Positions 13 to 61,800 of a DNA stretch of 64,000 nucleotides are shown here, one piece after another. Positions within the stretch are counted from its first letter, which is position 1, and every line of letters begins with the position of its first letter. The notes beneath the pieces were generated by a model that saw only the letters and a list, made by a program, of their open reading frames with translations, had not been told where the DNA came from and did not search any database. The position numbers and the translations under genes are program-made. The stretch comes from Bilabrum cf. latius (taxonomy: Eukaryota), in NCBI GenBank assembly GCA_965178125.1, contig OZ237736.1:868001-932000 (forward strand). Direction: 5' to 3'.

Positions 13-586
13 TTATTTGCAGCAGCCCCATCGTCGCGCCCCCCCCTACTGCTGGGCAAAGACCTCAATGACACTCCCTTCCTCCATCTGCGAGACGCTA
101 AAATTCGACAGCCACGCGCGAAGACGATTCACTGCAGCCATTTCGATCAGGACTGCGAATACTTGTTTGAATCTTACCCCGTAATGCTTGATTTGCTTGT
201 CTGGATCGTCGAGCTGCGATGAAGTCGGGCTTTCTCCAAATAAGCTATTTCATAAAACATGAATGAAATGCAAGCAATCAAAGAACATTGCTTACGGTGT
301 TTCCATCAAAGCTAAATCGGACCGCATCGGATGACAATCCATTCTGCTTGCAATACGCATCCATGATCTTGCGCGCAGGCGTCTTCTTCTTAACCTGCAA
401 AATCAAATGACAACAAGTGGGGGCTGCCGTGTGACATGTGAATGCATCAGGACACAAGGCCCATGCCAACTAACACCTGCAATTCGAACCGTCGTCGTAT
501 CTCACCTTAAACGTTATCTGCTCGCCATCAGAGGCCTTGACGACAATTGATATTTTGGAGCTACCGCTGTCGTCTGCTGCTGCCAT
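13..586 (-). CDS. SMT3: SUMO (small ubiquitin-like modifier) precursor, 4 exons, 1 in-frame TAG
   Basis: Exons 586-506, 394-296, 213-178, 87-13 (GT-AG, all phase 0) give MAAADDSGSSKISIVVKASDGEQITFK/VKKKTPARKIMDAYCKQNGLSSDAVRFSFDGNT/LDDPDKQIKHYG/MEEGSVIEVFAQQ*GGARRWGCCK-TAA. This has SUMO-type FKVK, RFxFDG and QxGG motifs. TAG at 46-48 precedes the GG. Confidence 0.92.
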
Positions 587-764
587 TATACACTCGGAAC
601 AATCGGGAGTACCTGGTCGACGTTGAGCTATCATTGGTTCCGCTACAATGGTTCCGCAAGCGCCGCGGCAGCGATACTGCGCGGCGCCTCCTGCACTTCG
701 TCTTCAGGCCATTTGCAGGCTTGAACGCGCTCGAAAGATGCACCACGTTTGGTTTGCTCATCAA

Positions 765-2198
765 ATGCGAGAGCTAGGCTCTTGTTTATGCGGTGTCGTT
801 GCATGTCTGTGCTGTCTGGGGCCTGTTTCACTCATTATTGCAATCGTCTTCTTTGTCGGAGCGGCTAGGAACCACAGAGAAGACCTGGTAGAGTCATACA
901 ATGGCGTGGTTGACATATGGAAGCATGGATTAGCGGCACAATTTGGTGCAATCTCGCCATTTTTGGCCCAGGCCACGGACGTCGGCATTAGTCGAAGAGT
1001 TGCTGTAAACTATACGAGCCAGCCTCCTCCGAGAATCGATTCTGGAAGCGACCTGGACAAGTATTCATAGCACCCTATATTCTATGGTGTTGGACGGCTA
1101 TTTAATGATGTGCATGGAGCCTACAACTGGCCCATCGACGACTCGCACTACGTTCCATCAGCGATTTAGATCCCGTCGTTCCGGGTCTTTTAGTAGAACT
1201 CTCAGTCCACCGTGCTGCCATACACTGGCGAGCACCCATCAGGCGGTGCTCCTGTGGTCTTCATGGCAAAGGAGTTTGGAGCATCGCAGTCGAGCTGCAT
1301 GTCAAGGCGGGGCATCTTTGTGGGCTCCCCTTCCTACATGGACGACGACGATTTCTCCACGCGAGACGATGATTACCACCGCTACGACGACGATGATGAT
1401 TTCAACCACCATCACCACCACCACAAGACTGTGAAAGGGGTGTGCATCACTTTCTGGGCCCTGCGGAGCGTGTGCGTCACTGTCACCGTCCCGTCAACGA
1501 CGACGCATAGGATGCCGCTGGCAGTGCGAAACGGAACCGGGGCCGCAGCTGTAGACCGCAGCTGGCACAACGAGGCCGGTTGCGAGGGAATCCCACAGGC
1601 GCTACGAGCAGCGACGGTCCCATCCGAGCTGAGGTTCGGATCGGCGGCGCCGTTCGGCGTCTCCTCCTTCGGGTACGAGCAGGTGCCCGCCTAGGGGAGA
1701 AGGGGACCGTCTGTGGTGAGCCTCAGCAGCACCCGCGTGACGGTCCGGTCGGGAGGGGACCCGTACGTGGAGGCGGTGCGCCTGACGAACGGGAAGCCCA
1801 CGTCGTTCGGTTTGACCAGGGCGACCCAGTTCGCAATCGCGGTGGCTTTCTTTGTGATCGGGGGGATTGGCTGTGCCATCCCCATTGGAATTCTCTGCTG
1901 GGTGCGGGCCTGCGTGGGCGGGGGCAGCAGCAGCAGCAGCAGCAGCGGTGGCTCGGCAGGAGGGCCGTGGGAGGGGCAGCAACCGCAGGGAGGGGGTGCG
2001 ACGGCGCCTCTAGTGCAGGGAGGAGGAGGAAGAGACGCCGGCGGCTGGTAGCCGTAGGATCCCTGGCAGCCGCCCGCCTCCGCGCCACCGCCAGAGGCAG
2101 TGTACGGTGGACCTCCCCAGGGTCCGGTGCAGCCGTACCCGGGGCAGGCGTATCCGAACCAGCCCTAGATGCAGCGTCCGGGGTTTATAGTTCAGTGA
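765..2198 (+). CDS. Uncharacterised membrane protein (N- and C-terminal hydrophobic segments, Asp/His-rich tract, Pro/Gln-rich tail)
   Basis: ORF-track pieces 648..1070, 1212..1694 and 1713..2051 share one frame, broken only by TAG, and end at TGA 2196-2198. TM-like segments LIIAIVFFVG and FAIAVAFFVIGGIGCAIPIGILCW. Start codon uncertain (648/738/765). Confidence 0.7.
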
Positions 2199-2858
2199 AT
2201 TCTGTTGGACGAACATACTTTATTCGGCTCGCTCGTAGATGACCGTTGCAGTCTGTGCGTGCCAGAGTGGGAGGGATGACTCGCAGGTGCTCACCCCAGC
2301 ATGTTGCAGAAATGTGCGCAGCATCAATGCGATCATATGTAAACCGGTGAACGTGTTTTCGCCAAGCTTACGTGCCAAGGACCTCCAGGAGCGGAGGTAG
2401 GCCGACGCAGGCTATTTCTTGTGCGAGCTCTCGTCTGCCTGTCCCTCCGGAGCTAGATCAAAGTCTCTCTGGGATACGTGGCCGTTCCTGCAGTAAAATA
2501 TATTTGAGGTATCGCGAGGTGATCTCAACTAGCCCTGGAACGGAGGCTACCAGGCAACATCGCTACAAGTAGTTCGACTTGCTTGATTTGTCCCAATTTG
2601 CCGATCATCAATTGAGACACTGCAACTCGCACAATCGCACCACCCAACGCGAGTGACTCCGCCGTGGCGATGCAACAAAACGATGGTCGATCGTATGAAC
2701 AGAAATCCCATTCAGTTGCTTCATCAAATAGAAAGTCTGGGGAGTTGCACACATCGCGACGTGTTGATGGACCCTAGGCCGCTGCTTCACGTCGCGGTTT
2801 GACCAACCCATCAATTCACGTCGGCATCTAGGGATCGAAAGACAAAGCGCTTGCGAAA

Positions 2859-5800
2859 ATGGGCAGACTTGGGGGCTCAATGCGCAGCATCCCCCAGAAA
2901 GAACAGGAAATTCTGCTCGGTGGTTCCAAGAGAAGTCGACATGCAATGCTGTACCGGACAACTTCGCAGGGCCAAGCGCAGGCTTCTACTGGACTGGGCC
3001 ATTTTCCATTGCTGCAGCATGTTTCACGCGGCTTTGGCGTGGAAGCCTCCCGAACCAACTCTGGACGATCTGTTGGGGTGCAGTCTGCACCGGGGCACTC
3101 TCTCGCCGGGCCAGGCGGCCTTGGGATCCAAGTTTCAGGCCAGGATGAGTTTCCATCAGATTTTAAAAGTAGGATTGATATTCCTGTGCTCAATGGCGGT
3201 AGTGGAGCCTCTAGCAGTGGCGACCTCGGGGTCCAAGCCGGAGCTGGAGCGACGCAGCTCAGCGATGCCCAACAATCTCCTCCTGGTAACTTGAAGGTTC
3301 AATCGGTTTTGAATCCCAAAATCACTCGCGGAAATGGTGGACTTCCGTTGCAGCACGCTGCCGGGCTCCCGCGAGGTCAAGATACGGCCAGCGAGGCCAG
3401 AGACGAAAGCCGACATGTCTCGGGTGTGCATGAGGTAAGATGTGACAATACGAGCTGCCTCAGATTTTGGTGCATTCGTGTACAAAATTGGCTGCCTGTC
3501 AGAGCAAGGGCTCTCGCCGCAGCCAGTCGCCGTTCTAATCGCCTTCTGCCACGCATAGTGGCCCGATTGACTTGCCCCTTCGTGGTCGCGCTTTGTCGGA
3601 CCATTCAGCAAAAGTATGTAGCATCTTGCATGTTCTCGCAGGGAGGAAATTCGACTGGAGCACCTCGAATCCAGGAGCCTCGTGCGGTCTCAGCTCCCCG
3701 TCCGCCCACTGCTGCCGTGCCCAGCGGTACAGGGGGGGCAGGACTTCATGCAAGTCTAGGAAACAGGCCCGGTGTGGCATCGACTCTACCAGCACCGCCA
3801 AATGCGGATGTACTTGGTGGCTCCTCCACTCCGATGCGAGGTGAGCTACCTTCGCCTGCCAGTGGCGGGCGCTCGGCTCGAATCGGCTCGAGCCAGTCCG
3901 TCTTGACCTCGGCTATGTCTGTCCAGCACGGGGGCAAGGGCGACCAGGCTGCTGTGGCAGCAACTCTGCAAGGCATCAGTCGCAACCACGGGCACTCACA
4001 GGAGGTATGGGACCCTCGCCGGCTGCCAAAGCCGACCGTGGAGGACTTTTCCAGCTTCGAGGAGATGATGGCACAGCTGCCGTCGAGCTTCGGCATATTG
4101 GAAGTCATGGGCAGGGACGGAACCGCCGCATACCACGTGAATGTGGTCAGCATCACAAAGATGCAGAAACGAACGTACACCCTGCGGACCGCAATGCAGG
4201 CGTACTTTGTGCTGCTGAGATACTCCTACAAGAAGTGGATGCACCTCATGCGCGCCGCCCCGCAGCAGGCTGCCAAGGCACACGCTCCAGCTAGTGCCGC
4301 TGTCCCCTCTGCGCCCGCCTCTGCGAGATCGTCTGTGGCTTCGCTCAGTGCTGGTCGTGGCGAATTTGCACTCGCTGGCGCTTCTGCAGCTGCGAAGTCT
4401 GCACCATCGAGACCCCAGTAGATGCAGGCCATTCCATCGGTGATGTCGCCTGGCCGCCATCTGGGGGACTAGTCCGTCAGCACCGGCTCCAGCCAAGAAA
4501 GTTCGGCAAGCAGCGGTGGTGCTGCCGTTTCTGAAGGCCAGCAATCCCGCGTGCACTCGTCCTTGTCTTCGGAGAGGGGTCCCGGCGGTGAGATTGGTTT
4601 TCCAGTGGACATTTTATCTCATCGTGGGCTACCCCATGCCTCGGGAGGGTTGATTCTGCCTGAATCTCAACAGGCGTCACAGGCAGGGAGCAGCGAGAGC
4701 CTCGAGTCTAGACCACGGCGAGCGAGGCAGCACTCTCTGAAAGACTTGGACCTGCTGGAGAGGCCAGCCAGCCGGGAGCATCGCATGCTGAGCACATCTT
4801 CCGACGGCAGCCTGGGGCCAGCGGGTGTGTCTCCAACCGCCTCCACTTCGGGTGCAGGCGCGTTGTCAGATGCCGCAAAACACTGGGAAGCCCGCGATGC
4901 GACCTCCTCATCCTCGTCGTCATCTTCCGCCTTGATGCAACCTCATCCAGATAAGCAAGACCACCCAGACGATGTGTCAGACGGCAGTAGCATTGCACGC
5001 AAGTTCACTGGGATCGATTCCGAGCTGCACCAGCCCGCTTTTTCAGGCATACGGTCTCAAGATGACAATGGGTCGCTGATTTCGTACGGTGGAGGAGGTG
5101 GCCCAGCACCACCACCGAGCCGAGTCATCGATGCGAGCGAGTCTGCAGCGATCCGTTCACACCTTCCGCCTACCGCTGCAGAGTTGGAAGCGAAGCGGTC
5201 GTAGGGGCAGGGAGATGTGTTCGTCCCAGGCCGCGGTTCGGTTGAAAACGATAGTGTGGCGGCTAGGGAATTATCGGGCCTTTCAACGATAGGCAGGCGA
5301 GAGCACTCCAGCGCAAGCCAGAGCTCGATGCTGCTGCCTGTGGGGCATGCTAGGCAAAGCTCGTTCCCAAGCAGCCCGATGCTGCCGTCACCGGTTTCGG
5401 CAGGTCAGGCGCAAGCACAGTCGGTGACCATGTCGTCAGGGGCCTAGTTCCCTGCCACCACGGCCGCACCTGGGGGCCCAGTAGCGGTGCAGCAGCCGCA
5501 TATGGTGCAGCCGATGCAAGGCCGATTCCTGGTAGCAACTAGAGCACCCGATGGCAGCACCTAGTACGTATTGCAGGGGGGGTAGGGTGCCATGCCGGTC
5601 AGGCTCATGCAGCAGGGACAGCAGCCGGGCGGGCAGGGTATCCTGCCGCAGGGCCATCTGCCGAGGCCGTACAGGTACACATATGCCTTGCAGCAACAGC
5701 CCGGGAAGATGCAGCAGTATCGCATGGTCGTCATGCCGAGCAACCAGATGGCGAGGCCTCCAGTATTGCCCCAGACCGGTTCCATGGTGATGCGTACAAT

Positions 5801-7274
5801 GCAGTCTGCGCAGGGCCCAGCAATGCGGCAGATGGTGCCGGCACATTCGCCGCCGCAAGCATCTACGCCCATCGGCAGCAAGCGGCCAGCCAATGCAGCC
5901 TCTCGCTAGCAGCCGCTCGTCTCGCCCACGCAAGCCTCATCGGGTGCAGCGATCCCACCCTCGGACGAAAAGTAGCCTGCAGCGAAGCGAGCGAGGGTAG
6001 ATGGCTCCCAGCAGGAGAGCGGAGAGACGTCCAGCACGACTGCCTCTGCCTCTGCAACAGCAAGTGCCCGCAACACGGCGTCTTCAGAGACGCAAACCCA
6101 GACGCAGATACCTGAGCTGTCGCATGGCACCACCGTGCCTGGTCGCACGTCTCGGCGGCGGCGATCCTCAGCCAAGGCCCGGTAGATGGACTAGCTGGCG
6201 TCCTCTCCGCAGTCTCCTCCTTCACAAAAGGACAAGGATCCCCGGCAGGCAGCACTGGAGCGTATTGCAGCAGCCGAAGAACGCGTTGCCAAACAGAAAC
6301 GCAGGGCCGCCGCAGCTTCCGCGGCGGCAGCAACCCGAGCGAAAAGCAGCCGCAAACGAGGATCGCCTGCTCTGAGCTCATCCGAGGCAGCAGCAGCAGC
6401 AGCAGCAGCAGTTGCAGCAGACTCGGACGATGATGAGCAGGATGGCATGAAGGATGGGCCCTCGGTGCAGCTGGATCCTCCCGAGGCGCCTGACGTCGCC
6501 CCTCCCGCCTCCCTTGCTCAGTCGGTGATGGCAAGCGCTGCTCTGGCCTCTCTCCCTGTGGTGGGGAAGCAAGCCATGAATCACCCTGCGCCGAAAAGCC
6601 AGAAGAGAAAAACAGATAGCTCCGATTCGCACAGCATGGCCTCTGACTCAATCGATGTCGTGTTCGAGATCATGTTTCCTGGGCGAGAGACCACACTCTA
6701 CTTCAACAAGCCCATGGGATACGAAGAGCGCTTCAACAGAAGAAAATTCAAGCCCGGGCGGCCAGCAGTCGGCCTATCTGACGACCAGGTGCGCGTGCTG
6801 AAGCGATGGATGGGTCGCGTGGAGAACTGGAGTGCCCCGTTTCCCCCCGACTCGGCAAAGGCTCGCATCGCTGAGAAGGCGTGCCTCACTGTTGGGCAGG
6901 TGGGTACGTGGCTAAAGAACGAACGAAAGCGTGTTTGGAATCGCAGGCGAGAGCATGCGGCCATCAAGTGGAACTCGATGTCGAAGCAGTAGCGGCTGCA
7001 CATGAACCGAGTGTACGAGCCGCATAGGCGAGAGATCCTGAAGCGACGGATCGCTGCCCTCGGTCAGGATGAGCTGCCTCAGTCGGCCCTGCAATCCGAG
7101 GAGGCAACGGCTCAGGTATTGGAGCGCCTGCTGCAGTACGACCCAGCCGAGGATATCTTCAAGGAGCAACCAAAACGGTACAACTTGTCGATCTGTCGCG
7201 TTGCAGTACCCATGGGGCAGGCAGTGGGAGGGGCAAGCGACGAAGGCGGGCAGGCGAAGGGAGGTGGTAAGTGA
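2859..7274 (+). CDS. Large low-complexity protein with C-terminal TALE-type homeodomain
   Basis: Six ORF pieces in one frame joined across about 11 TAGs; ends TGA. Probable in-frame intron 3435-3641 (GTAAGA...CGCAG). Homeodomain LSDDQVRVLKRWMGRVENWSAPFPPDSAKARIAEKACLTVGQVGTWLKNERKRVW at about 6775-6940. Confidence 0.8.
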
Positions 7275-10021: not shown

Positions 10022-11849
10022 ATGTCCGTTACATTACATGTTTGGCTAGCTGTATGTGCAGTAGCTATTCAAAGTATAAGCAATGCATACGGAATTCGCG
10101 TGGCTGCGACGAGGTCCCAGGCGGACGACATCGCCCGCGTGCGAAAAGAGCTTTGGACCACAGGTAAGCAGCTGAAACTCTGTCAATTGATGAATTCGGT
10201 ACGATTTTTCAGCAACGGTACTCCAAAACCTGCACGTTTTCCTACGCAGGAAAGCGCCAAGCTGCTAAGCAAGAGCAAGCTGCGCTCCAAAGCCACCTTG
10301 CCGCTGAAATGGATAAGTTAGGCGTACCACCCGATTATTTGGACCCGCGAATTCCTGTTGAGGCTTTCAAGGCCGAAATGGTTCCTCGCCATGTCATGTT
10401 TGCCCCGCCTCCCGAGCTTCAACATCTTGGGATTGGTGGGCCGAACGGGGCCGGATTGCAATCAATTCACCCGTTCACAACGTAAGACCACTTCCGAAAA
10501 GTCATGGTTGCATGCCGTGTGCATGGTACTCTTGTCCTATCGCGCCTCCGAACAGCCCGTTTCGCAGATTGCCAACAAAGTCGGACCTGGTAGCCGGCCA
10601 GGGCCGCAGAGACGCCCTGGCTCACTTGCCCGCGCTGAGACACCTGCTAGCCATGTACCCATAGTACCGCCACTTGGCTCCCATGTATGGGGCGGGGTGG
10701 TGGGGCATGGATCCCACGCTGAACCCGGATGTAAGGCTGCCTCCTCCGCACGACCCCGCTGCAGTGGGAGGAACCGGGGATGGTGTGGGAGATCCGGAAG
10801 TGCAGGCCGCGATAGCACGGGCAGACCAGCTCGCCTCCAAGGCGGGCCAGCTCGCCCGCTAGGCACCGGGGAGTGAAGAGGCAGTGGAGGCAGCCAGGCG
10901 AGCCGACAGAGCCATCGCGCTGCTGCCACCCGCCGCAGCGTCGGCTCTCCTGTTCCGTCGATTCGCGGGATCTCGGGCGGGCACTCCGGCGCATGGCCTC
11001 CCTGGCGGTATCCCTACGGAACAGGGGCCTTGGGACGTGGACCCGCTGGACCGCAGGTATGGCTGGGGGGATGGAGGTGCCATGGAGTCTGGTTGGTCCG
11101 GGACACTGGCTGATGCTGGCCTGCAGGGGCACACAGACGCAGGTGCGGCCACTGCTCAAGGAGGTGCGCTGCGCGCCGCGATCGGTAGGAACAGCAGAGG
11201 CGCCCCAGCTGTAGAAGCTGGCAGCCAGCCGGGCGCAAGTCCACCATCTGGCGATGTCTTGCAGAGCGAGGAGCCCAGGACCACTGACTGGGCCAAGGCA
11301 GGGCACGAGGACGCTGAGAGGTTCAGGAGCAAGCTGCAGCAACGCTTGCAGCAAGACAAGAACCGCGAGGGTGGATCGTGGCTGGACGGCACTGCGGATC
11401 CCGCCTCGGACTGGCGGGCTGCACGAAGAGCAGCGGGCTTGCCAGTGACCGAGGGCAGCTCGTTTCACACGGGATCAACTAGGCACACTGCCTTGCACCC
11501 GCTCGAGCCAGCCCCCTCCACGGAGTGGGTGCGTATGCCCAGGGGCTGGCAGCCAGGGCAGTCTGCGTACTCGTTGGCGGCGAGAAGGGGGGTGGAGAAA
11601 GCACGATCGCGGACCCGCTCGCTGTCCGCTGCAAGCTTGCTCCAGGCAGGTGCCACCGAGAGCTCGTCCTCGTCATCATTGCACAACAGGCCTCCTTCCT
11701 ACAAGCCCCAGGGCGCCTCTGACACGGTACACATGCAGTACAGGAACGCCCCGCTGCTGCCCCCAGGCAGTTCAGCTGCGACGATGCGTGCAGTACTGCA
11801 CCCGCGCGGGCCTTCCATGCAGCCAGAGGCAGAGGTGGGCGGTAAGGAA

Positions 11850-11881
<32 letters not shown>

Positions 11882-14800
11882 CTCCCCCGGCACTTCCGAT
11901 GACCCGAGCTCGATGCGGTTTGCCGCCAGCACTGCCACATCTGGCTCGCAATCGTAGTCGTCCTCCACTGCGGGCTCCAAATCTTCTGCAGAAGCTGAGA
12001 CTAGTAGCCTATCGAAGTCACAGTAGGGCATGCAAGCTGGCACTGGTTCACATGCCAGCGCGAGCTCGCAGGCTTCCGCGTTGTCTGGTGAATCTGCCAC
12101 GCAGCGAGCAGGTGCTCAGTCGACGCAGTAGCATCGCGCGAATTCCGGGTGGTCTGACGGGTTCGGTCGTGGGTTTGGTGGGCCCATTGGCTCCCTGGGT
12201 CATGCGGCCTACCAGCCAGGCGTGCTGCCGTCCGGGCAGCCAGGATTCATGCGCCCAAGCGGACAAATCCTTGCGCCGTACGTGTTCAATCCTGCGGCCC
12301 CTGGGGGCTACCCAGTGGACCCGATTGCCCTGCACAACTCGAACGCGTTCTGGAACAGGCTGTCAGGCCCCCCCATGTCACCCACGTACAGTGGCATGTC
12401 GGCATCAGGCGGCTTCTTGCCGGGAATGACGCCACCTGGCTGGCAGTAGCAGTACCGCGGTGCCACGATGTATGCCCCGCCAGGCTAGGGCGTGATGCCG
12501 GGTGCATTCGCCGCGGGAGCAGCGTAGGCAGGTAGCACGTTCCAAGGCCCAGTGGCGCCTGGCTGGTCCACCGTCATCGGTGGCCTGCCTGCGTACCTTC
12601 GACTGAGGGCCGGCCCTGACGGCGAGCCATCAATCGTAGCCCAACGGATGGGCATCAATGGCATGCCGATCGAGGTGGGCAGCTGGACGCTGAGGGACGG
12701 CCAGGTCATGCCTATTGGCGGGTCCGATAACAGTCAGCTGCCTGTCGGTGCGGTTGGCCCCGGACCAGTAGGTACGGCAGTTTCGAGCGGTGGTGCCATG
12801 GGGACGGGGCCTGCCGTCGTGAACGGACAGATCGGCGACGGGTACACTGCGCTTGGCACTGTCAAGGCCTCCAATGTACCACTGGCGTGGCCCGCTGCGC
12901 CTATCCTGACGGCACCAGCACTCAAGCCTAATGCCGTGGCGCCCCCAGTCCCAATTCATCGCACGATTCGCGGGGGTAGCGTGAGCGGGGACACCGGAGA
13001 ATAGAGAGCGGATGGCGTGTTCCAGCCAAGGTCGATGCAGGACTAGTCCAAGCTGGAGTCTCTGCTTTCTCAGCTCATCGTGCATCTTGCGGGATAGGGC
13101 GGCAGTGGCAACAACCAAGGCCAGCAGCAGCCGCAGCAGCAAGCCCAGCAGCCCACCATTGTGGTTGTTGGGGGTCAGGGTACGTCAGCTTCTGGCAGTG
13201 GTTCCGATTCCAATAAGATCTGGGAAGATATCCGGCGCACTATGTAGCAGCAGAAGGAGGAGCAGGAGAAGCGACAGGCGGAAATCCTCCAGCAGCTGAA
13301 TGAGGTTAAGAATGGAGGGCAGCAGTCGCGAGGCTCTTCGAACAAGCTAGACGAGAGCGGGTCGAAGTCGAGCAAGTCGACCGAAGGGAGCGACTCCGAT
13401 TCTTTTAATAGCCAGGTCTCCAATAACTAGAAATTGGGTGGCGGCAGCGTGGATGAGTCTAAGCAGGGAGGCAAAGACGAAGAAGGAGAGGAAGAAAGAG
13501 AAGAAGACGTGAAGGGCGGTGCCAGCGATGGCCCTGGCAGCTCGGTGAAGACCATGATGCCGAATGACAAGCCAGGTAGCCAGAGTGTCCCTGTGGACGC
13601 CATTCCATCCGACACGGTCGTCATGGGGCAGGTCACCGACGGCGTCAAGACGGACCCGCAGGGCCCTTCCAAGGCCAAGCCGAGCCAGGACGCAGGGGGC
13701 GGAGGCATGAAGTTCAGGTCTGAGAGGGGCGGGCCTGGGCCGGGTGGATTGCACCTGGGGCATACGCTTCCTCCCGAATTGGCCGATTTGCCGGACAGCC
13801 CATTCTCATCCAAGCTTGGAACTCGTGGCAGCAGTTTCCGCAGGATGCCAGCATTCAGCATGCTACAGCTGGACGAAGACTCTTAGAAGGGAACAACCCG
13901 GCACGAGGGTGTGCATGGTGAGGGGCCCAGCAGCAGCAGCGATGCAGTGGGCCAGTGGGAAACCACGCATGCCAGCAGCGACGGTCTCTTGCAGAGCCAG
14001 GCAGGCACTGGCAGGCAGAGATTCCGTTCCATCCGAGGCAGGGCAAGCACTCGTGCCTCGGTGCGGTCTGGGGCACAAGCCGGCTCGCGGACTGCCAGCG
14101 CAAGGGCGGGGGCACGCGCAGACTTGGGTGCGGGGGCAGTGGCAGGGACCGGTTCAGTTGCATCGGCGGAGGGAGCACACTCACACACCAAGTTTATTGG
14201 GGGGCTCGTGAATTAGGGACTCGAGGTTGCGAAGGGCGTGGCCGCGCACGTGATTTCTCATGTTGCCTCGCATTTGGCATCCGAGTCGGCTGCTCAGTTC
14301 CTCAACAGCCCGATTTAGGGAGCCACCACGGAGCCTTCAGAGAGGCCTCCCCCCATGCCTCGCGCCCTGATGCCGCAGGAGATTGCCGCTCTACAGGGCC
14401 AGAGCGGGACTATTGACAAGATGACGCGGCTGCTCGCGTCTGAAGGCGGGGATTCTGGCGCTGGTGACGCTGGTGGTGGCGATGCCGAGGAAGCCCAGCG
14501 CAGCAAGACGAATTTGAGGCACGAAGCATTTCGAGTCTTCGGGGACCTCGATGCCCCGGCGGCAGACACAGAGATGTCGCCGCCCATGCCTGTGAAGCCT
14601 GCTCCAGCGGCAGGGGAGGGCGCAGGTGCCGGTGCTGGCAAGCCCCCCATGCCAGTCATGCCGATCGCGGTGCCTGCAGATGCAGGGAAGGAGGGCCGGC
14701 CTGCCGTTGCGGAGGCATTGGGGCACTTGAACCAGGGGCGGGCGACAGGAGAGTATGCGAACATGCGATTCAGTGCAAGGGACATGGCCGGTGGGCCCTT

Positions 14801-14936
14801 CGCGTCGCTGGGGGATCGCGAGTACAGGTATGTGCGCGAGGACGAGAAGGGCGTGTTCCAGCAGCAGCTGGATGAGAACAACAGGCTGATGTTTCCGGGT
14901 GGAGATTCCACTCAAGGCTCAAGTGGGGCTGAATGA
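10022..14936 (+). CDS. Large (~1,580 aa) secreted low-complexity Gly/Ser/Pro/Gln-rich protein of unknown function
   Basis: Signal-peptide-like start MSVTLHVWLAVCAVAIQSISNA. Introns 10164-10249 and 10482-10567 join into the frame shared by seven downstream ORF pieces separated only by TAG; ends TGA. Confidence 0.7.
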
Positions 14937-20484: not shown

Positions 20485-20612
20485 GATGCTGAAGGTGATG
20501 GGTGGGGGCCAAGCTGAGGGTATTGAGTGCCTGAGTGAACAATACTTCGCTAAAACACGAATTGGTACAGTGTCACTGTTCATCGCCTCCTACGGGGTAT
20601 TGCAAAACCCGT

Positions 20613-49114: not shown

Positions 49115-49294
49115 ACTGAAGACTCTGGGCAACAGTGTTCTGAGATCCGTTTGGGAAGTCGCCGCGCCAAAGGTGCCGGCTGTGGTGGTTCCGCAAGCAA
49201 GGCAGCGCTGGTGGAGGCCGTTGGTGTACCTCTTTGTAAGGCTGTTTCAAAGCACCTTTCTAAAATAACTCTAGAACTCAATGCTTGGACACAA

Positions 49295-52229
49295 TCACGC
49301 AGTCTCGGCCTTCCGCTCTGCCGAGGCACTTGCGCTCGCAGCCCCCGCACCCCCGCCGGTTGGCAGTTCCTGCCCATCGGCCAGCACGGGAGCTGCCGCC
49401 GCCGTACCCCCTACCTCCCCTCGCAGCTTCTTGGAGGTCTCACCCCCTGCTCCCGAATCGGAAGACTCCGAAGAGCTCCTGCGCCCCTCCAGCCGCCTCT
49501 GCGCCGCCCGCAGCCGCGCGCCGGCCTCCTCCATCAGGACAACCTTGACCTTCTGCACAGCCTCCCCGATGTCATCCTCCCTCACTACCAGGCTCAGCAG
49601 CTCGGCGCTCGGGGGCTCCATGGGTCCAGACGGGCCCGCGTCGTCACCGTCGCCGAACGACTCGCTCTGTGCATGGCTGATCGCGTCGCTGTTGGTCCTC
49701 CTGCGGCGGGCTTGCGACGCCTCGTATTCCGTCTCCGTCTCGCCCGACTTAGTCGGCTCCCCGTCGCAGCAGCCCGCGCAAGGGCACTGGTCCAGCGGAT
49801 TGTTCACGCCGCAGGGGTACTTGCAGTTCCACAGCGAAGGTTCGTTGGCCTTCTTTGCCCTGGCCTCGTAGCTGTGTGCGTACCTCTCGTTGTCGGTCAA
49901 CCTATCCCTCACGGGGCCCCTCACGCAGGCAAGGAACAGAGTGGGCACCTTGAGTGGGACCACCTTCAGCAGAGAGAGGCGCGCCTCCGCTGCCTGGCGA
50001 TCTTGGAAGAACAGCGAGTCCGTGTCCGGGTCGTGGATGTCAACCAGCGCCCGCTTCTGGTTTGCCGTGAGCTCCGTCTGCCCCAGCGAGATGGTCAGCT
50101 CTGCCACCTCGGCTTCCAGTCTCTTGGCGGCAGCAGCGCACGTGTGCTGCGAGGCGCGCACAGACAGGGCCCCACCGCCCGCCGAAGCGCTAGCGTGCTT
50201 GTCGTCTGCGATGCTCGCCTCGTGCTCCCCCTCGGCCAAGGAATGCGACCTCGCCGCACCCGCGCTGCCAGACCCTCGCTCCACACCGTGCAGCTGCTGG
50301 TCCTCCCCAGCCGTGTGCCCCTGCCCCGCGTCCATCTGCGCAATCGCAGACCGCAGGACCTGGATTCTCTTGTCCCTTCGCCGCTTCGCGCCCTTCATGA
50401 GCTCCTTGGGCACTGCCTCCAGCCCATGGACGGCAGAGGAATCCAAGGTGGTCATCGCCGAGCAATCCAGCACCACGGCCTCCGGCGCCAGGTGGCCCGC
50501 TGGCGGCTGGGACAGCTTCACGACTAGCTCCTTGAAGAAGACGGCATTGGCGAAGAACATCTGCGCGTCGAAGCGGACGACCACGAGGCCAGCTTCCTCC
50601 TGTGGTGCACCACCGAAGCGGTTCACGTTGCGCCACGTGTCGGTTCCCGGCAGCTTGCCCAGTCTAGCAACGTGCGGCTGGGCCGCCTCCTTTAGGAGCC
50701 TCACGATGGAGATGCCGGCACCCACCAAGATGCCCACCTCGATCCCCAGCACGATGGTGCAGACGAAAGTCACAATATAGACGAAGAAGTCGGACTTGTC
50801 CACCGCCCACAGCATCCGGGGCGTCTCGAAGTCGAAGAGCTTGGTGACGGCGAACAGAATCAGCGTCGCAAGTGTGGCAGACGGCAGGTTGTAGAAGAGG
50901 GGCGTCAGGAACAGCACAGCGATAGTCAGGATGATGGCTGACACTGTTGAGCTGAGGGGCGTCTTGGCGCCCGCGTCCGCGTTCACGGACGTGCGGGAGA
51001 AACCGCCCGTGGTCGGGAATCCGCTGAAGAAGCATCCGAATAGGTTGGCGGCGCCGAGGCCCACGAGCTCCTAGTTCGAATCCACGTCGTTGTTGTACCT
51101 CAGCGCCATGGCCTTCGCAACTGAGATGGACTCCATGTACCCCACAACCGCGATCAGGAACCCGCTGGGCAGGAGCTGCGTGAAGTCAGACCCGAAGTCC
51201 CCATCCAGGATGTTGGTGGCCCCGGGCAGCCCGCTGGGCACGTCGCCCACAACAGAGACGCCCTCGTCCTCGAGGTTGAGCCCTGCCGCGATGGCGATGT
51301 TGACGACCACAACGATGAGGGCGTTGGGGATGGCGTTGAGAATCCGGTCGTAGGTCTTGCTCTCGTCCTATTTGACCACGGGCAGGCTCTTGAGGAACGT
51401 CTTGAGGTACTTGAGGAGGTAGAACATGGCCAGGTTCTCGATCGAGATCACAAAGGTGAGCATGTGCGTGTCGCCCAGGTTGGCCGCCACGTCGTACCAC
51501 GTCTCGTAAACGTACTCGTGCCTCGGAATCTTCAGCCCAAATACCTTGGACAGCTAAGAGCTCCCGATGATGATGGCTGCTGCCACGGTGAAGCCTTTGA
51601 GCACCGGATGGGACAAGAAGTTGACGAGGTACCCGGCGTGCACGAGGCCCATCACTAGCTGCACCAAGCCGACCACGAACGACAGCTTAAACGCCAAGTT
51701 CTGGTATCGCTCTGCATCGTCATCAGGGTCAACTCCCAATGCTGTGATACTCGCTGTCGTCAGGACGCTCATGAGAGCTACAGGGCCTACGGCCAGCTGA
51801 GGGCTGGTGCTGAAGATTGGGTATATGTACAGCGACATGATCGAAGCATACAGCCCTGTAATTGGCGGCATAGATGCTAATGACGCGTATGCCATGCCTT
51901 GTGGAATCAGCATGACTGAGAGGCTAGTTTGGAGCACAACAGCAGAATTGGGAAGTGTCAGCTGGCCAGTGTACTGCGCTCAATCAGTCGTAAACGCCGC
52001 CCTACCCTCGCGAATCGGGACTTCTATAGTAATCAATCTCACCAGCGACAACAAGGCCCGAACTGAGGTCGCCAGACAGGCTCCCAACGAAATCGCTCGC
52101 ATAGGAAGTGCTCAGCCATCGGTGGATCTCGACGCGAGGCACATAGGACCATATGTCAAACGGCTCTACCAAATCATTTCTTGGTATTCTATTTGATCTA
52201 TCCTCGGTATTGACTGTCTGTTGAGACAT
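49295..52229 (-). CDS. SulP/SLC26 sulfate-anion transporter with STAS domain
   Basis: GDLSSGLVVA/VMLIPQGMAYA, GLY, LAVGPVAL, FLSHPVLKGF, SS*L, ESISVAK, DSN*ELVGLGAAN, TGGFSRT.VN..AGAKT, RFDAQMFFAN, LDSSA. Intron 51916-52042; ends TGA. Confidence 0.95.
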
Positions 52230-52574: not shown

Positions 52575-55500
52575 TCAAGTGATACGAGAGGTACGCCTAG
52601 CCGCCGACAGAACTGCTGGTGTCTCTGGGGGCGGCGTCCTCCCCAGCCGGATGGCTGCACCCCCAGGGGTGCTCCGGCCTGACTCTGAGCCCAGGAACGG
52701 AGACTCTAGCTCGGAAGCCCGGTGAATAATGGGAGACAAGATCAGCGGCCTCGGACCAGGCACTCTCTCTAGCAGCTTGACAACACCGTCGGCCTCCAGC
52801 AGCCCTGCGGCAAGGATCAACTGCCTAGTTGCGTCGTGTTGCTGCACCACTGCCGATAGCGTCCTGCCCTCGATCGCTCTGAGCTTGAGCTTCCAGGCCC
52901 TCCTCTCGTCCTTGAGTACCTCCAGTTTTTTCTCTATCGAAGTCCTAGCGTTCTATCTCTCGAAACTGCGAGACTGATGGAAGGCGATCTGGCGCTCCAA
53001 TCGCCGCAGCCTTTGAACCAGCTTTTCGTCGATGGGAGGGGCTTCTCCCGGCTCGAGCCGTGCCTCCATCTGCTTCTGCCCCTACAAGTTGGCCTTGAGC
53101 TCCTCCTTGAGGGACCTTAGGGCGCCTTGATCGTTTCCATAGCCAGCGATGGTGTCCACCAGATCGCGACGCTTCTCGTACAACTGCCGAGAGGCGGCAT
53201 CGATCCTGCTCCTAAGCGTGCTGGCCTCCTGCATGGCAGCCCGTAGTTCCTTCAGCATGCGGTTCTCTTCGTGCGATACTTCTGAGGCTGCCTCTGCAAC
53301 CTGTACCCCAAGCCCGTCACTATCGGCATCGCGATTTTCACTGCCTGCCGCACCGTCACTACCGTCACTGGCGGCGTGTTGCTTCCTCTGCACCGCTCTT
53401 AGCTCATTTGTAACGCAAAGTTCCTTGGATACTCGACCAAGCAGGTACTCCAATTCTCTCGCTCGCTCTGCAGCCACCTCAGTCCTTGCTTTCAGCACCT
53501 CTGTATCCTAGTCGTAGCGCCGCCGAAGATGCCGAATGCGACCCCACAGCTCTGCCTTAACGTCACGCATGACCGTCAGGTGCAAGCCCGCGTACTTCAT
53601 CGCCGCCATGAACAGGCGTGCCCGAAGTGCAGTGCCACACTGTCGCACGTGTTTGAGCTCAAGCTTGCAGGCAACGAGCTACCTGTCCAGATCTGCAGCG
53701 TTATCTCTGTGCAGGTCAGCCTCTGTGACAAGGCTGTCACACTGACCACGCAGCACATTCACTTCTACTTCCAGAGACCTCACTCTCTCAGAAGCCTTCA
53801 GCGCCACCACTTTCATCTCTTTCCTCATCTCTTGGGCATGCCTTGCCTTGAGGGCTTCCTTCATCGCCTGCTGCTGCTCCTTGGATGCTTGCTTGAGTCG
53901 TTTGATGGCATCTGCCCTTGACTTTCGCTCCCTCTCCAACATCTTCTCAGTGCTTGCAGTCGTCTTCTCCAGCTGCTCTAGGCGCATTGCCTCGGATACA
54001 CGCATGGTCTCCTGTGTCCCCTGCTCTCGCCCCTCAGCTCTTCCCTGCTCAAGCCCTTCCTGGAACGCATGGTCCGCCTGCATACCAGACCGTGCTTCCG
54101 CAGCAGCATGTGTGGCAGCTTGACGCTCAACAGCCACTCGGTCCTCTTGGGACATGAGTGCCAGCTCTAGAGCGGGAGCGGCGCTGCGAATTGTGGCAGA
54201 AAGAAAGCCTGAGTCGGGCATTCTACTCGTGTGGACCAGGTGAACCTCGCACAAGACGTCTGATGCACCGCGCTCGGCGCCCGATCGATCAGTCTGGGTG
54301 CCGGATGAGATCTACTCGGTTGTCTCTGCCGCAGTTTTCAGTCGCCTCAGCTCGCATTCGAGCGCAAACTGCTCCTTGCTTGCAGCTGTGGCTCTCTCCT
54401 CGAATACCTTGGTCACCTACGTGATCCTGTCTTGGAAGCGTCGACGCGCGTCTTTCATGGCCTGCTGGTGGGACACGGACAGACTGGCCTCGCACTACAA
54501 CTTGGTGGTTTCTGCCACAAGTTCTCGCTCCCGCACCATGTCTACTTGAAGCTGCGCCACCAGGTCCTGCATCCGTTGAGCCATGGCTCCTAGCTCGTCG
54601 CCATGTCTCTTTGCCATGGAGTCCAAGGCAGACTGATGAACCATAGGAGTCCCTTCACGCGCGTCACTTGCAGCTCTGACCGCACTTGCAATGTCTTGCG
54701 CATTGCGCAACTTGTTCATGCATGACCTCAGCTTGCCCTTGGTGCTCCGAAGCTCTGCCTCACACGCGCTGCGGCCCTGCTTTCGAGCATCGCGATCAAT
54801 CCTGTCCAGCCGGGCTTGGACGTGCTGTTTCTCCCTCGCAAGTGCAATGGCATGGTCCGATTCGAGCTCAGCCCTGGCAGTCTCGTATGCGTGCCGCCTC
54901 GCTCGGCCAACGTGCTCCTGGAGCCTGGCTTCAAAGTTCGCCTTCATTTCGGCTGCTTCTCTCGACATCCGTCCGCTCAGCTCTTTTTCGGAAGCTTCGC
55001 GGAGCTGCCATCGGTCCTGCTCCAGCAGAAACTGCGAGGCGCGGACTAGGGCCTGCTGTTGCTTGATGGCTTGGAGCTGCTGCTCAAGCTGACTCGAAGC
55101 TTCTTGCGCTACAGCGCTGACGCTGTGACCTGCAGCTACGTGGCTTACCTAGTCATCGCTGGAGTCCATGCCGGATGCAAGGGATACTCGGCTAGATGTT
55201 CCAGCAATACTGTGGCGGCGTTTCCGCGGGCCTGCATCCAGCGTGGTGCTGCTCGAACTAACGCTGCTTCGATGTCCAGCACTGCCAGCATTCGCGGCAA
55301 CCGAGCGCAGGCACGACAGGGCAACCTTGACGAACATGCCCACCTGTGCGGGCTGCACAGAACATGCCGTTGAATTGAACTCCGTCTTCATAGCCCTCAG
55401 CTCATTGCTGTGCCTCTTGTCCCTTGCTCCTCTGTTGAACGCCCGCCAGCCGGCCTACAGCAGCCTGCCTCGATCGGTTGCTCGCCGGCCTCGCTCGACC

Positions 55501-57629
55501 AGCTGCAGCATGTGAAGAAACCGAAGAGCTACCACCTTCCTATGCTGGGAGCTGGCATGCTCACGGGTGTTGCCTATCGAGACGTCGGACTCATTGCCCC
55601 GGTTCTCGACTTCTGCATCACTGCAGTTGTCATCACGCGGCCGGCTGTCTAACCGGGATAGGGCACCCTCAAGCACATCGATGGCTCGCTACATGTCCTC
55701 ATTCTTAGACATGAGCTCCTCGCATTTGCTCCTCCACGCATCTCTATCTACTGTTAGTGCAGTAAGCCTATCGAGGTGAGTTGCTGATTGCTCTGCAGCG
55801 TCCGCTGCCTCCCTTCGCAGCTTGCTCAGTTCCGCCGTGCGGTCCAGTCGGAGCTTGCCCAGCTGCTACTAGGCCTCTTGCGTCCTCTTCTGCTGCTCGT
55901 GCAGAGAAGCTTGCATATTGCGGCACTTGGTCTGTTCCTCTGCCAGTTTCTTCAGCAGGCTGGTCTCTGTGCTGCGCACGGCCTCGCGTGCCTCCTTCAC
56001 CTCATCCTGCAGTTCCTGCCGCGCAGCGGTGAGCTCCCTGCTGTGCTGCGAGCGCGCATCTATCGCGTGCACCTTGACTTGACTTAGCTGCTCGATCGCG
56101 TTATCCCTCTCCTGCTGGCACTTTTGCAGGACTGCCATCATTTCAGCTAGGGCTGGGTCTGCGACCTGCTGCCCACGACTGGCGGCATCTGAGTCCTCAG
56201 CTGAAGCCTCGACTGCTACAGAATTGGGATCCCCGCTTTTGGACTTAAGCTGGTAAATCTCACTAGTTTTGGTGGCCAGATCCTTAGCTAGACTTTCATG
56301 CTTGTGGCGCATTTCATCGGCTTGGGCCTCAAGCCGGGCTACCTTTGACTCGAGCATGTGCACTTCAGCTGCTTGTGACTCTCGGCTCTGCTCCATCCGC
56401 TCGTGCACTTGAGCTGCCTCCGCATGAATCCTCGCTGCGGTCTCGTGGCTCGTGCGTCTTTCGATATCAGACCGCATGCTTGCTTCCTCAAGCGCAGACA
56501 GAGAATCCTCGTGGAGCATCTTGGCGCGGTCGAGATCCCGCGCTCGTGTAGTTGCCTGGCGCTCTGCCTGCCTCTTTGCATGATCCAGCTCCAATTTCAG
56601 CTATTTTAGCTCCCTTCTAGCATTTTCGAGCTCTACAATTCTGATGCTAGTGTCTGCAGTTGTGCCTCGCGCAGCCTCACCGGACCCGGCAGCTGAACCA
56701 GCACCAGGGCGAGACTTTGTCTTGTTCGGCTGGACCAGTTGATCTCCACGGGCGGCCTGCTCCGCTACTTTGAAAAGTTTTCCTCGCAGCTCCTGGGTTC
56801 GCCTTTCGCTTTCCAAACATCTCTTTTTCCAGGAGCTGAGCTGCTCTTCAGCCTGCGCAAGTCGTCGCTGAAGCCCACTGCGCACCCGCCCAATCGCTTC
56901 CTCCGCTGCTGATCTCTCAGTCGAGATCAATTTATTCAGCTCGTTCATTTGCCTCTTATGCATAGTCCCTTGGTCGTCCAGCCTTTGTTGCATGGAAACC
57001 AGTTCCCGCATAAGTCCAACCGCTGCTGTTGAAGGTTTGGCACTACCCTGCGCCGTCGTACTCCGTGACATTGGTCTGCCGCGAGATCTGCGAGCTCTGC
57101 TACGAGTACTAGCATGAAAATCATATTCCTGGGATGGTTCTGCGGAGATAGCTGGCAGTTCAGCGGCCGAACCACTAGTTGGCAACGAGCCACGGATCCG
57201 CAGGCTCGTCTCCGCTGCCGCAGAATTGCTGATGATGGCAAAGTCCTCCGAAACTTGCGATGCTGTACTGAAACCCTATTGTGGTGATGAGCTAGCTCCT
57301 TGCTGCTCGATGGCCTCAGCGCGTTGGTCGGCAATCGGGTCCTGGTGAGAATGTTCCGGAAGTGCTGGCAGAACACAGGCTTGCTTGGCTTCAGAATCAA
57401 CAGTCACGTCACCTTTGGTGAATTCTGTGGCATGATTTGTACGATCAGGCTTCAGTAAGCCCTGCCGGGTTCGCATTGACCAGGAAGCTGCCCTGCCAAG
57501 CACGTCTGCACCCGCATCGCTTGGCTCGCCGGATCCTTGCTCAGATGGATCCGCACGCCTAGAGCTACGTCCAGCACCCTTCAAACTACGAAGATATGGC
57601 GATGGCAGCATTATTGACTTGGTTGGCAT
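52575..57629 (-). CDS. Very long coiled-coil protein (~1,680 aa), function unknown
   Basis: Nine ORF pieces in one frame separated by TAG; heptad-rich E/R/A/L/Q composition; ends TGA 52575-52577. Confidence 0.75.
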
Positions 57630-57754
57630 GCTTCCAACCGAACAAACAGCGATGATCTGAGCGCGAGCCGTTGGGCCAAATATTTTGATTGTTGCGTGAT
57701 GTTTGGTAGCTCTCCTCGCTTTACGACGATTTGGGCCATTCTTCGTCGACTGTC

Positions 57755-58680: not shown

Positions 58681-58827
58681 AGCAGGCAGGGAGCCATGCG
58701 TCTGACGGCCGTATAGCGGGGAGCTTAGAATTGTACCCTGCATCATCATTAGATTGTAGAGATATCATCGAGTCGATTAGACGATTTTTTTATAAAATTG
58801 AAATGATATTCCCATGAGTCTCACGCA

Positions 58828-61800
58828 TCAAAACAGTCCCTCAAGCCTAGCGCAGTCAGACACGCCAAGAGAGTCCACTTTGCCGCCACGTGCACCTAGC
58901 AGCCGCTACATCCCCTCTGCAGTGACCGCGTGCTGATGAGACAGGCGGAGAGTCCTGAGGGGCGCCCCTGCACCGACGATGGCATCGAGGCAGGCGTCGT
59001 TCACAGTATCCCCCTCGGGACTCGACCAAGCCGTTGCGGGCGCCGAATCATGCACACCATCCTTCACAACGAGCACACCCAGCTTGGTGCTCAGTCGCAG
59101 CACGTGCATCAGCTCGTTTGCGTGAATACCGGCGCACATGGCCAGCTGCAACGACTGGAGGTTTGCTGCCCTTGGCCTGATCGCTGCCAGCAGACCGCCA
59201 TGGGGAAGGGGTAGATAGCTCAACTGCAAGTCAAGAAGCGGCGCATGCTGAGAAGAAGGTCCCCCACCATGGCATACCGCGTGGCATTCGCATGCCGGTG
59301 CTTCAGATGCCCCCGCCCCTGACGCGGGGTCTGCGCCTACTTGGCCATCTGCTTGCTCTGTGGCATCAGTTTTGCTTTCTGAATCAGAAGCAGCCATTCC
59401 CAGCGAGCGCTCCAGCTGCACCTGATTGCGTATCTGCCCGCACGAAACCAAGCTGAGCACCCTATCTCTCGCCTGCTCCGTGTCGAACACCTCCTTCCGT
59501 CTCACCTACCCACGCGATGAATTCCAACGGAGCCTCTGGGTTCCTAGCGCCACGCCATTTCCGGTACCTGTCAACTCCACCGAGCCAAGGACAGGACACG
59601 TCTAGACCAGTGCTAGCCTGCAGTCCAGTGCACCGTGTGCCTTGAGGCTCCTCAGCGCTGGGGCACGCACACCTACCACGAGCCGGCGTTCCATCGGGCC
59701 CTCCTGGGACAACTTTTGTCGAGATGATTCCAGGCATCGCTCGGCAAACTGATTGAAAGATTCCGACTCTTGGGTTGGTTTGGACTAACCAGCATAAGCT
59801 GCCAATTCCCCAGACTCTACTGCACCATGCACCGATGCTGCAGTTGCAGCAGCCCCAGAGCTAGTACCAATATTTGCAGCGATGGAGCGCCCAGACTCGT
59901 CCATAGCACAAAGCTGGTCTTTCAATAACACCAACTCTTCTACAGCCTAGTCAGCCCGAACAGCAGCTGCATTGGCTCCGTTGGGGTCGGCACACCGCAA
60001 GGTGAGCTGCTCAAGGCTAGCGCTGTCTATGCAGGCGAAACCATCTGCAGCAGCAACAGCAGGCCTGTCATGAGATGAAGTGGTACTACCGCCATTTTGA
60101 TCAATGATACCCCCAGCTTCGACTAGCAGCCTGTCCATGTCGGCCCGCAGATCCTCCAGAGCCTCCACCAGTGGATCAGTGGTACGATCGACTGCTCCTG
60201 CGCTTGCGCCGCCGAGCCCGCTGTCCGCTGCCTGTGCCACGTCGAACAAACGAGTATCCTTGACCCGTTGCCTCTGTCTAGTATGCGAGTGGTCATGGCC
60301 ACTGCACATGGTGCGGGCCGAGTCCTCGCTTGCATGCACCTCGATGCCCGCATGCATGCGAACCCTGCGTGCCTCCTCGTTCTTGTACGCTGTGATAAGA
60401 TGGATGAGATCGCTCGCTGCACCTAGGAGCCTCTCAGCCGCTAAATGGACGCGATGTGGCGGCTGGATTACTGCAGAAAGCTACTACAAGCAGCGGCAGT
60501 GCTTGCTGATGGCAGCAAGCGTGTCTGCGTCTATGGACTGCTGCACATCCAGAACGAGTGCGCGCATGCTAGCCGGGGGATGCACAATGGCAATACCAGA
60601 GCGTCCGAAACACCCACAATACCCCAAGCACTGTGCTACTTCCTTCGGTTTCATGCGGTTGGGACCAATGCCGGCAATGACAGGGTCATGTGCCTGGCTT
60701 CCTGCGCCTGCTACGCCCGCAGCTGCATCATCGACCTCACCGCTCTCAAGAGTGTCCTCATAGTTGCTAAGCCGAAGCACCTGGGGGACAAAACGTGGGC
60801 TTGCAGTGCCGTGGTCTACCAAGCTCTCGCTAGATTGCCTGTCCAGTCGCTGTAGCTGGGCGTTGATTGGCTCGAACTCCCTGCTTCCCACCGGGTCCAT
60901 CCAACGAATGCCTCGCAGACCTACGCCGGACACTTCCACGGAATCACACCCATTCGGCAAGCACAGCCACAGCAAGCATTTTCTCTCCAAAACGTCGCAT
61001 ATCTTCTTGATACCTCTTGCAAAGCCACCGGGTGCACTCTTGCCCCCCAATGAGATACCCAAGGCTGCAGCAGTGCCGCCGTCACCCTCATCGTCTGCAG
61101 ACGTGTGCCGTGCCACGAAAGCTGCCAGGCCTTGCGACGCAAACTCGCTGGGGTCTGTGGATCGAATTATGCCTGCTACTTGGCCCAAATTCGTCTGCAG
61201 CTGCGGCCAAGCAAGATGAGCCTGCTTTAGGACCGGGCACGCCCTTAGGTCAACCACGAGGAGAGGGTCACTGGAGCTGTGCGCGTCAGTGTGGGCCGCC
61301 GTGGCAGCTGTGGACGGCATCCACAGTGAGCATGGGATGGAGCAGCAGCTCAGGTGCAGCACGTGCAAGTACTGCAGCGCAAGCCTGCCGACAGGCAGAT
61401 CAGTCGGCACATGGGCTAGCTGCTAGGCGAGCACTCCACTGCTCTATCGGGACGGCGCAGCAGCTCGCTCAACAATCTGCCTTGCGTTCGTCGGAACTTG
61501 CAAGCTCAAGCGCTCTAGGCATGGAAACGACATCAGAAGATCTGAAATAGCGGGCGGTGGATGGTGCTCGAGATCCTCCTCAGATGCCTCAGCAGGCGAG
61601 GCAGCGTCCTTCGGCTGGAGCAGGTAATACAAAGCTGACTGGCTAATGTTGAAGTCGAGCCTGCGAATTGCGTTACGACTCATTTTTGCAACGGATACGA
61701 GCTGCATGGCGTGCATAGCTGCTTCTAAGACCTGTCCATCCCGCCAACCGAGCCCGGCATCACACAAAATGGACTGGAGGGAAGCCTACCTGCTTGCGTC

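Follow-up and report, generated by a model that had tools for sequence, protein, structure and literature searches.

A nuclear code that appears to read UAG as glutamine and to keep UAA as a minor stop in a putative Cafeteria-related stramenopile

Decoupled UAG codes in nuclear genomes

In code 6, which is used by many ciliates, hexamitin diplomonads, some ulvophytes, Streblomastix and Amoeboaphelidium, the codons UAA and UAG both encode glutamine. The present analysis concerns a window of 64,000 nucleotides (nt) (contig OZ237736.1, positions 868,001 to 932,000; "the window" denotes this whole stretch of DNA) in which the two codons appear to have separate functions. With a probability of about 0.85, this is nuclear DNA from a Cafeteria-related heterotrophic stramenopile whose cytoplasmic translation reads UAG as glutamine and uses UGA as the main stop and UAA as a minor stop. 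A coupled change of UAA and UAG has been described for no fewer than 13 independent instances in PMC5304391. The first-pass annotation of the window had stated that both codons change together in most eukaryotic variants; coupling is indeed the rule, but the statement omits the decoupled UAG-only codes described since 2017 (PMC5304391; PMC11687900).

Iotanema spirale, a member of the Fornicata, shows the same codon table as the window (the pattern of NCBI table 15), with nuclear UAG encoding glutamine and with UAA and UGA as stops (PMC5304391). Panek et al. propose a tRNA-Gln with anticodon CUA together with an eRF1 weakened for UAG, the same combination that is put forward below for the window. 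The two organisms belong to unrelated supergroups, Iotanema to the Metamonada and the window, by the assignment given below, to the stramenopiles. UAA is the predominant stop in Iotanema (PMC5304391), whereas UGA closes 21 of 24 genes in the window and UAA closes 3. The code of Iotanema was shown from a transcriptome, with a T32G substitution in the GTS motif of eRF1 (PMC5304391), whereas that of the window is known from 64 kb of DNA.

The phyllopharyngean ciliates Hartmannula sinica and Trochilia petrani and the ciliate Protocruzia tuzeti likewise read UAG as glutamine and keep UAA as a stop, which is the preferred one according to PMC11687900. In contrast to these ciliates, the window shows introns of ∼90 to 150 nt, a G+C content of 60% and long open reading frames (ORFs), and its nearest named relative is Cafeteria. 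Other decoupled UAG-only codes assign a different amino acid to the codon, leucine in the rhizarian exLh and in phyllopharyngean metagenome-assembled genomes (MAGs) and serine in Scotinosphaera, and retain UAA as a stop as in the window (PMC5304391; PMC11687900). The code 6 lineages share the glutamine assignment of UAG with the window; UAA is a sense codon there, as opposed to no occurrence in 16,477 in-frame codons and three TAA gene ends here. No report of a nuclear UAG code in stramenopiles or bicosoecids was found in the literature searched, the coverage of which was incomplete.

The same codon table is also found in viruses. Giant viruses and phages that read TAG as glutamine ("code 15") are viral entities with unknown hosts, whereas the window represents a cellular nuclear genome. 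Giant-virus MAGs with alternative codes have been cataloged, and all isolates so far stem from standard-code hosts according to that catalog (PMC13524828).

Stop codons and in-frame triplets

The gene ends considered here are contained in one span.

Positions 13 to 58830, no strand assigned: span holding 24 gene 3' ends, recognized by composition, Pfam matches, spliced contigs and a table of gene ends.

Among the 24 modeled 3' ends, 21 are TGA, 3 are TAA and none is TAG, the same pattern as in the 21 models of the first-pass annotation (18, 3 and 0). The terminal coding segments of these genes comprise 16,477 in-frame codons with 124 TAG, 0 TAA and 0 TGA, next to 176 CAA and 581 CAG. This is in agreement with the earlier claim that intact coding sequences lack in-frame TAA even though CAA is common. 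Given an A/G ratio like that of CAA to CAG, the probability that all 124 TAR codons (TAA or TAG) are TAG is 5.6e-15. UGA is not a sense codon, with no in-frame TGA and 21 of the 24 ends. TAG accounts for ∼14% of the glutamine codons, occurs at least once in 17 of the 24 gene segments and is spread evenly over gene deciles. An avoidance of TAG in genes with high G+C at third codon positions is not significant (Fisher P, 0.27; Spearman P, 0.067).

The absence of in-frame TAA is not circular, because ORFs delimited by TGA only show the same restriction of TAA. Wherever such an ORF holds a real gene, every TAA lies either 5' of the start codon, within an intron or at one of the three gene ends listed below, and the TGA-delimited ORFs 2616-7274, 10362-14936, 39810-43892 and 52575-57752 each contain no TAA. 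A training subset of 13,103 codons has no TAA in frame, as opposed to 29 and 45 occurrences in the two other frames. No ORF of at least 1,000 codons is present under the standard code, compared to six with TAG as a sense codon; reading TAA as sense in addition alters this result little.

UAG as a glutamine codon

TAG is a frequent sense codon and stands on invariant glutamine positions, as seen in a sulfate permease gene.

Positions 49295 to 51979, minus strand: SulP sulfate permease with a TGA end (Pfam, alignments); the TAGs at 51554-56 and 51071-73 stand on invariant glutamine columns, and that at 51368-70 stands on a variable column.

In an alignment of 120 homologues, the two conserved columns show glutamine in 119 of 119 and in 117 of 120 sequences (arginine in the other 3), and the column of the third TAG is variable. 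Aligned PDB chains show the same, with glutamine at the two conserved columns in 3/3 and 2/3 of them. A further line of evidence comes from the JGI metagenome contig L001, which carries the SulP orthologue of a related species with 79% amino acid identity over 789 codons. The frame of L001 contains 5 TAG, 0 TAA and 0 TGA in 794 codons. At the seven sites with TAG in the window or in L001, the pairs are TAG/TAG once, TAG/CAG four times, and TAG/GCC and TAG/TTG once each, the last two in variable stretches. The interchange of TAG and CAG fits a synonymous change between glutamine codons and argues for the assignment of TAG to glutamine.

The SUMO gene at the edge of the window shows that an internal TAG has to be translated.

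Positions 46 to 48, minus strand: in-frame TAG directly 5' of the SUMO Gly-Gly (alignment).

Gly-Gly is required by every SUMO, and this TAG must be read through because it precedes the Gly-Gly end.

Apart from the codon assignment, the first 200 bases of L001 (1-3267) represent the C terminus of an orthologue of the 1684-codon coiled-coil gene of the window, with a TGA end. The gene order is conserved between the window and L001.

UAA as a minor stop

The in-frame absence of TAA by itself shows only that the triplet is not a sense codon; the claim of termination is based on three gene ends, on the occurrence of TAA at ends only, and on back-up stops. The coordinates and genes that had been given for the three TAA ends are correct.

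Positions 13 to 15, minus strand: TAA ending the last exon of SUMO, 8 codons past the Gly-Gly processing site (gene-end table, alignment).

Positions 15439 to 20484, plus strand: 1681-codon ORF that contains 14 TAG and matches the GT32 DXD motif weakly, ending in TAA at 20482-20484 (Pfam, gene-end table).

Positions 33524 to 35944, plus strand: GatB with 4 TAG, ending in TAA at 35942-35944, 20 residues past the last conserved helix (Pfam GatB_N, 1.7e-80; C-terminal alignment).

Positions 35904 to 36445, no strand assigned: perfect tandem repeat of 49 nt in 11.1 copies (100% matches), which starts within the last GatB codons and holds the GatB stop.

In the PDB, SUMO2 and Smt3 match the last SUMO exon at their "...QQTGG" end, with weak E values of 0.18 and 1.5. 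Short tails behind the processing site are usual for SUMO precursors. The GT32 match of the second gene reaches 19.8 bits and thus lies below the Pfam threshold of 23. Its next in-frame TGA follows 11 codons past the TAA, at 20515-20517, and the codon-usage score is positive up to codon 1702 of 1704; in both long TAA-ended genes, the coding signal reaches the TAA. GatB homologues end ∼0 to 35 residues past the same helix (40 of 60 aligned rows), which places the tail of 20 residues within their range. Each 49-nt unit of the repeat behind GatB contains one TAG, one TAA and no TGA, and the next in-frame TGA is found at 36617-36619.

Additional evidence is provided by the codons following the stops.

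Positions 26836 to 26841, minus strand: TGA followed directly by an in-frame TAA as a tandem stop (gene-end and downstream-codon tables).

Positions 39474 to 39635, plus strand: last exon of eS25, with TGA at 39633-35, 3 residues past the end of the Pfam model, and an in-frame TAA two codons on, at 39639-41 (Pfam).

Positions 39804 to 39812, minus strand: TGA stop of a 1356-codon gene, followed two codons on by an in-frame TAA (gene-end and downstream-codon tables).

The gene for eS25 is the sole ribosomal protein gene in the window. Among the 48 codons that make up the first two in-frame positions behind the 24 stops, 3 are TAA, 2 are TGA and 0 are TAG, compared to 0 TAA in 96 off-frame triplets. 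With a window-wide TAA frequency of 0.32% per position, the Poisson P for the back-up TAA is ∼5e-4 to 2e-3. TAA thereby serves as an in-frame back-up within two codons of 3 of the 24 primary stops. By arrangement, the tandem stops up to two codons downstream comprise TGA-TAA once, TGA-x-TAA twice and TGA-TGA twice (28614-28619 and 31833-31838).

Taken together, TAA as a working stop has moderate to good support from a small number of cases. Use of TAA as a very rare sense codon is unlikely, because its only occurrences would then all be ORF ends.

Two side observations concern the SUMO and GatB genes. SUMO exon 2 ("...FDGNT") and exon 3 ("LFGESPTSSQL...") on the minus strand (160-310) are joined in frame only with 52 nt removed, and the canonical GT..AG intron comprises 51 nt; the mismatch is due either to a noncanonical splice site (CG-AG or GT-GC) or to a 1-nt assembly error. 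An RNA-type contig of run X6 that covers GatB ends at 35933, within the tandem repeat.

Alternative readings

In the alternative that survives best, itself very unlikely, TAA is unassigned or avoided and UGA is the only efficient stop, the three TAA ends being mis-modeled or the real stop being the next TGA. The closure of 21 of 24 genes by TGA, the lack of a TAA end at a tightly conserved C terminus, and the TGA just 11 codons on in the GT32-like gene are in line with this view. However, an unassigned codon within an ORF would stall translation and hence cannot precede a real stop. Translation of GatB beyond its TAA would append 225 codons from the 49-nt repeat, which is out of phase with the frame and brings in three further TAA, and the enrichment of in-frame TAA just after TGA stops (3/48 versus 0/96 off-frame) is what selection for back-up stops gives. 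No eukaryotic eRF1 is known to be blind to UAA but not to UGA, except in codes with UAA as sense.

Slightly less probable still is a context-dependent TAG, which would be sense inside genes and a stop near the 3' end, as for UAA in Blastocrithidia and for all stops in Condylostoma. Four genes carry a TAG at most 12 codons from the stop, and in one of them it abuts the TGA.

Positions 43893 to 43898, minus strand: RING-finger gene with a TAG directly 5' of the TGA stop (Pfam, gene-end table).

This TAG may have been the stop in the past, with readthrough today extending the protein by one codon, or its position may be due to chance. The four genes do not represent an excess over the 2.2 expected [Poisson P(≥4), ∼0.17], and no pile-up of TAG toward the 3' ends is seen. 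In every gene, a TGA or TAA lies near the end that is expected, the SUMO TAG has to be read through ahead of the essential Gly-Gly, and TAG does not appear in frame within 5 codons downstream of a stop (0/115). Frequent genuine TAG termination, which the first-pass annotation had named as evidence against its claim, is not indicated by the gene models of the window, where no gene needs a TAG stop; in-frame TAA, named for the same purpose, was likewise looked for in the window, without an occurrence in the 16,477 codons.

Ordinary code 6, with UAA and UAG both encoding glutamine and TAA rare because of the G+C-rich genome, has a negligible probability. TAA is the rarest stop triplet in the window (0.32% per position, compared to 0.80% for TAG), but A-ending codons are not rare in frame (176 CAA versus 581 CAG and 207 GAA versus 583 GAG); code 6 predicts ∼30 to 40 TAA per 124 TAG instead of the observed 0 (the P of 5.6e-15 given above), TAA is common off-frame in the training subset, and three ORFs end in it. 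Equally remote is the assignment of TAG to another amino acid (leucine, glutamate, tyrosine or serine, as in other UAG-only codes) or to a mixture. At nonconserved TAG columns, the residues D, E, A, L, T and V do occur in relatives, but both TAGs on conserved columns, of which there are just two, meet near-invariant glutamine (119/119 and 117/120), and 4 of the 7 TAG sites compared between two related species pair TAG with CAG.

Proposed mechanism of UAG decoding

The reading of UAG as glutamine with UAA and UGA as stops would involve two components of the translation apparatus. UAG would be decoded by a tRNA-Gln with the anticodon CUA, which would pair with UAG and not with UAA, and a tRNA with the anticodon UUA would be absent. 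The anticodon would have to be CUA because a UUA anticodon would read UAA too. Eukaryotes possess a single eRF1, and since there is only one, it would have had to drop UAG yet keep UAA and UGA; a loss of efficient recognition of UAG in this single factor would be the second component.

Nuclear DNA and lineage

The window has a G+C content of ∼60% and is gene-dense, with short GT..AG introns. Contigs from three public runs (X6 to X8) that match the window exactly bridge introns of the GT..AG type, 91 to 149 nt long, in the genes for PreP, a metallo-beta-lactamase (MBL)/rhodanese fusion and the La protein; none of the runs is labeled as RNA. Because the contigs of three runs bridge these introns, the window is expressed nuclear DNA with spliceosomal introns; it belongs neither to a virus nor to an organelle.

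Cafeteria roenbergensis provides the closest named match both for GatB (40% identity) and for SulP (59%). In a SulP tree, the window, the database protein P0122 (97% identical), L001 and the 73% relative P0121 form a clade beside a Cafeteria-like clade. The latter includes contig L002, which shows no in-frame TAG. No TAG is found in the 561 residues of P0121. Cafeteria uses the standard code. From these comparisons, the organism is with moderate confidence a bicosoecid-related heterotrophic stramenopile that is related to, but probably distinct from, Cafeteria. At least one related species, that behind L001, shares the TAG reading. The code change would have arisen after the split from the standard-code Cafeteria-like lineage.

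EFHB and SulP are neighbors in the window (47774-51979). For each of the Cafeteria-like homologues, P0243 and P0125, the record gives a contig of 16,834 nt and the same set of sources. This suggests that the synteny of EFHB and SulP may be conserved in a Cafeteria-like relative. A protein-atlas comparison of EFHB yielded only family-level look-alikes from mixed taxa.

Weighing of the reading

Several points speak against the proposed code or weaken its support. The TAA ends are only three in number. The first-pass annotation had already cautioned that none of them lies at a tightly conserved C terminus, which is correct, and the GatB TAA moreover lies inside the 49-nt tandem repeat. The SUMO TAA is located 12 bases from the window edge, with the next in-frame stop out of view. 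For the GT32-like protein, a scan of the JGI metagenomes gave no relative, and an exhaustive search with its last 431 residues gave two proteins, a 93-residue fragment and a weak repeat match, neither of which spans the C terminus. As no homologue spans this C terminus, the TAA at 20482 is without comparative support. The enrichment of tandem stops comprises 3 events.

Two further TAG columns add no support to glutamine, as they are not conserved: the SUMO TAG column shows threonine in two PDB SUMOs instead of glutamine, and a TAG column of the GH65-like protein shows valine in a human PDB relative. No tRNA gene and no Rfam match is found in the 64-kb window; the same holds for L001 and L002. 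No eRF1 gene is present in the window either, and no search aimed at eRF1 was made. With a sample of 64 kb, an occasional sense TAA or an occasional TAG stop in other parts of the genome would escape notice. The assignment of the lineage depends on two proteins and one SulP gene tree with a single named taxon, and the search with EFHB returned no Cafeteria; its best named match is labeled Symbiodinium sp. KB8 (45%), next to an 85% relative.

The decoupling of UAG as a sense codon from UAA as a stop, the central claim of the first-pass annotation, is nevertheless supported by the 0 in-frame TAA, by the lack of any gene that needs a TAG stop, and by the TAA ends together with the back-up TAA.

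Gene content and gene models

Translations with TAG as X show Pfam matches to a TALE homeobox, a GH65-type glucosidase, PreP, the metallo-beta-lactamase/rhodanese fusion, GatB and Kelch. Further matches of these translations comprise a RING finger, EFHB, the SulP permease, a KDEL receptor, eS25, an eIF1A-like protein and the SUMO exon. For several long ORFs of the window, the Pfam search gave no match. The run contigs that join across introns were used for gene models only.

Positions 20613 to 24616, minus strand: PreP presequence protease with a TGA end and introns at 22419-22532 and 22635-22783, both bridged by contigs of three runs (Pfam).

Positions 31836 to 33400, minus strand: gene for the La protein, free of TAG and closed by TGA TGA; its introns are at 32742-32837 and 33020-33143 (contigs, gene-end table).

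A TAG of PreP stands in the context "PTQVNY", which we presume to be conserved, and is not used as evidence here. La (minus strand) and GatB (plus strand) point away from each other, and only ∼100 to 300 nt separate their starts (33144-33530). A long ORF that is open with TAG as sense (32993-33478) lies upstream of the GatB start and overlaps the 5' exons of La on the opposite strand; it is probably not coding.

One protein carries, in its N-terminal portion, a Ser/Pro-rich unit of 12 residues that is encoded by a 36-nt repeat of 9.2 copies (26126-26458); its C-terminal portion contains repeated "...ELW.CD...C..V.D" modules without a Pfam match. In all four runs, the region at 27700-28700 stands out by a summed contig depth that is very high, by numerous variant letters and by loose contig ends; it adjoins an ORF for a sulfatase-like C terminus (28617-28991, minus strand). 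This region looks multicopy or shared with other organisms.

Implications for nuclear codes and giant viruses

A code with UAG as glutamine and UAA as a stop is of a type already known from Iotanema and some ciliates; its lineage here seems to be unreported. Nuclear codes that split UAG from UAA were unknown before 2017 and have been described from few lineages since, mostly A+T-rich ciliates. Tentatively, and at somewhat less than even odds, the window may represent an independent and unreported origin in a Cafeteria-related stramenopile clade of at least two species, the first reassignment of a nuclear stop codon in stramenopiles and the first code of this type in a G+C-rich genome with UGA as the main stop, with candidate hosts of giant viruses that read TAG as glutamine. 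A further unrelated case would be an independent replicate for the question of how one eRF1 drops UAG and keeps UAA. The organism is favorable for this question: it is G+C-rich and intron-bearing and seemingly comes from cultures, several public runs contain contigs of DNA as well as spliced contigs of RNA type, and Cafeteria is close by as a standard-code relative for comparison.

The code also has consequences for annotation. Standard gene callers truncate 17 of the 24 gene segments at TAG, and the database protein from the 97% identical sequence begins just past the first conserved SulP TAG site.

Cafeteria is a genus of known giant-virus hosts. A Cafeteria-related flagellate with UAG as glutamine would be a natural candidate for the host type of giant viruses that read TAG as glutamine, and the window would offer a cellular counterpart to these viruses.

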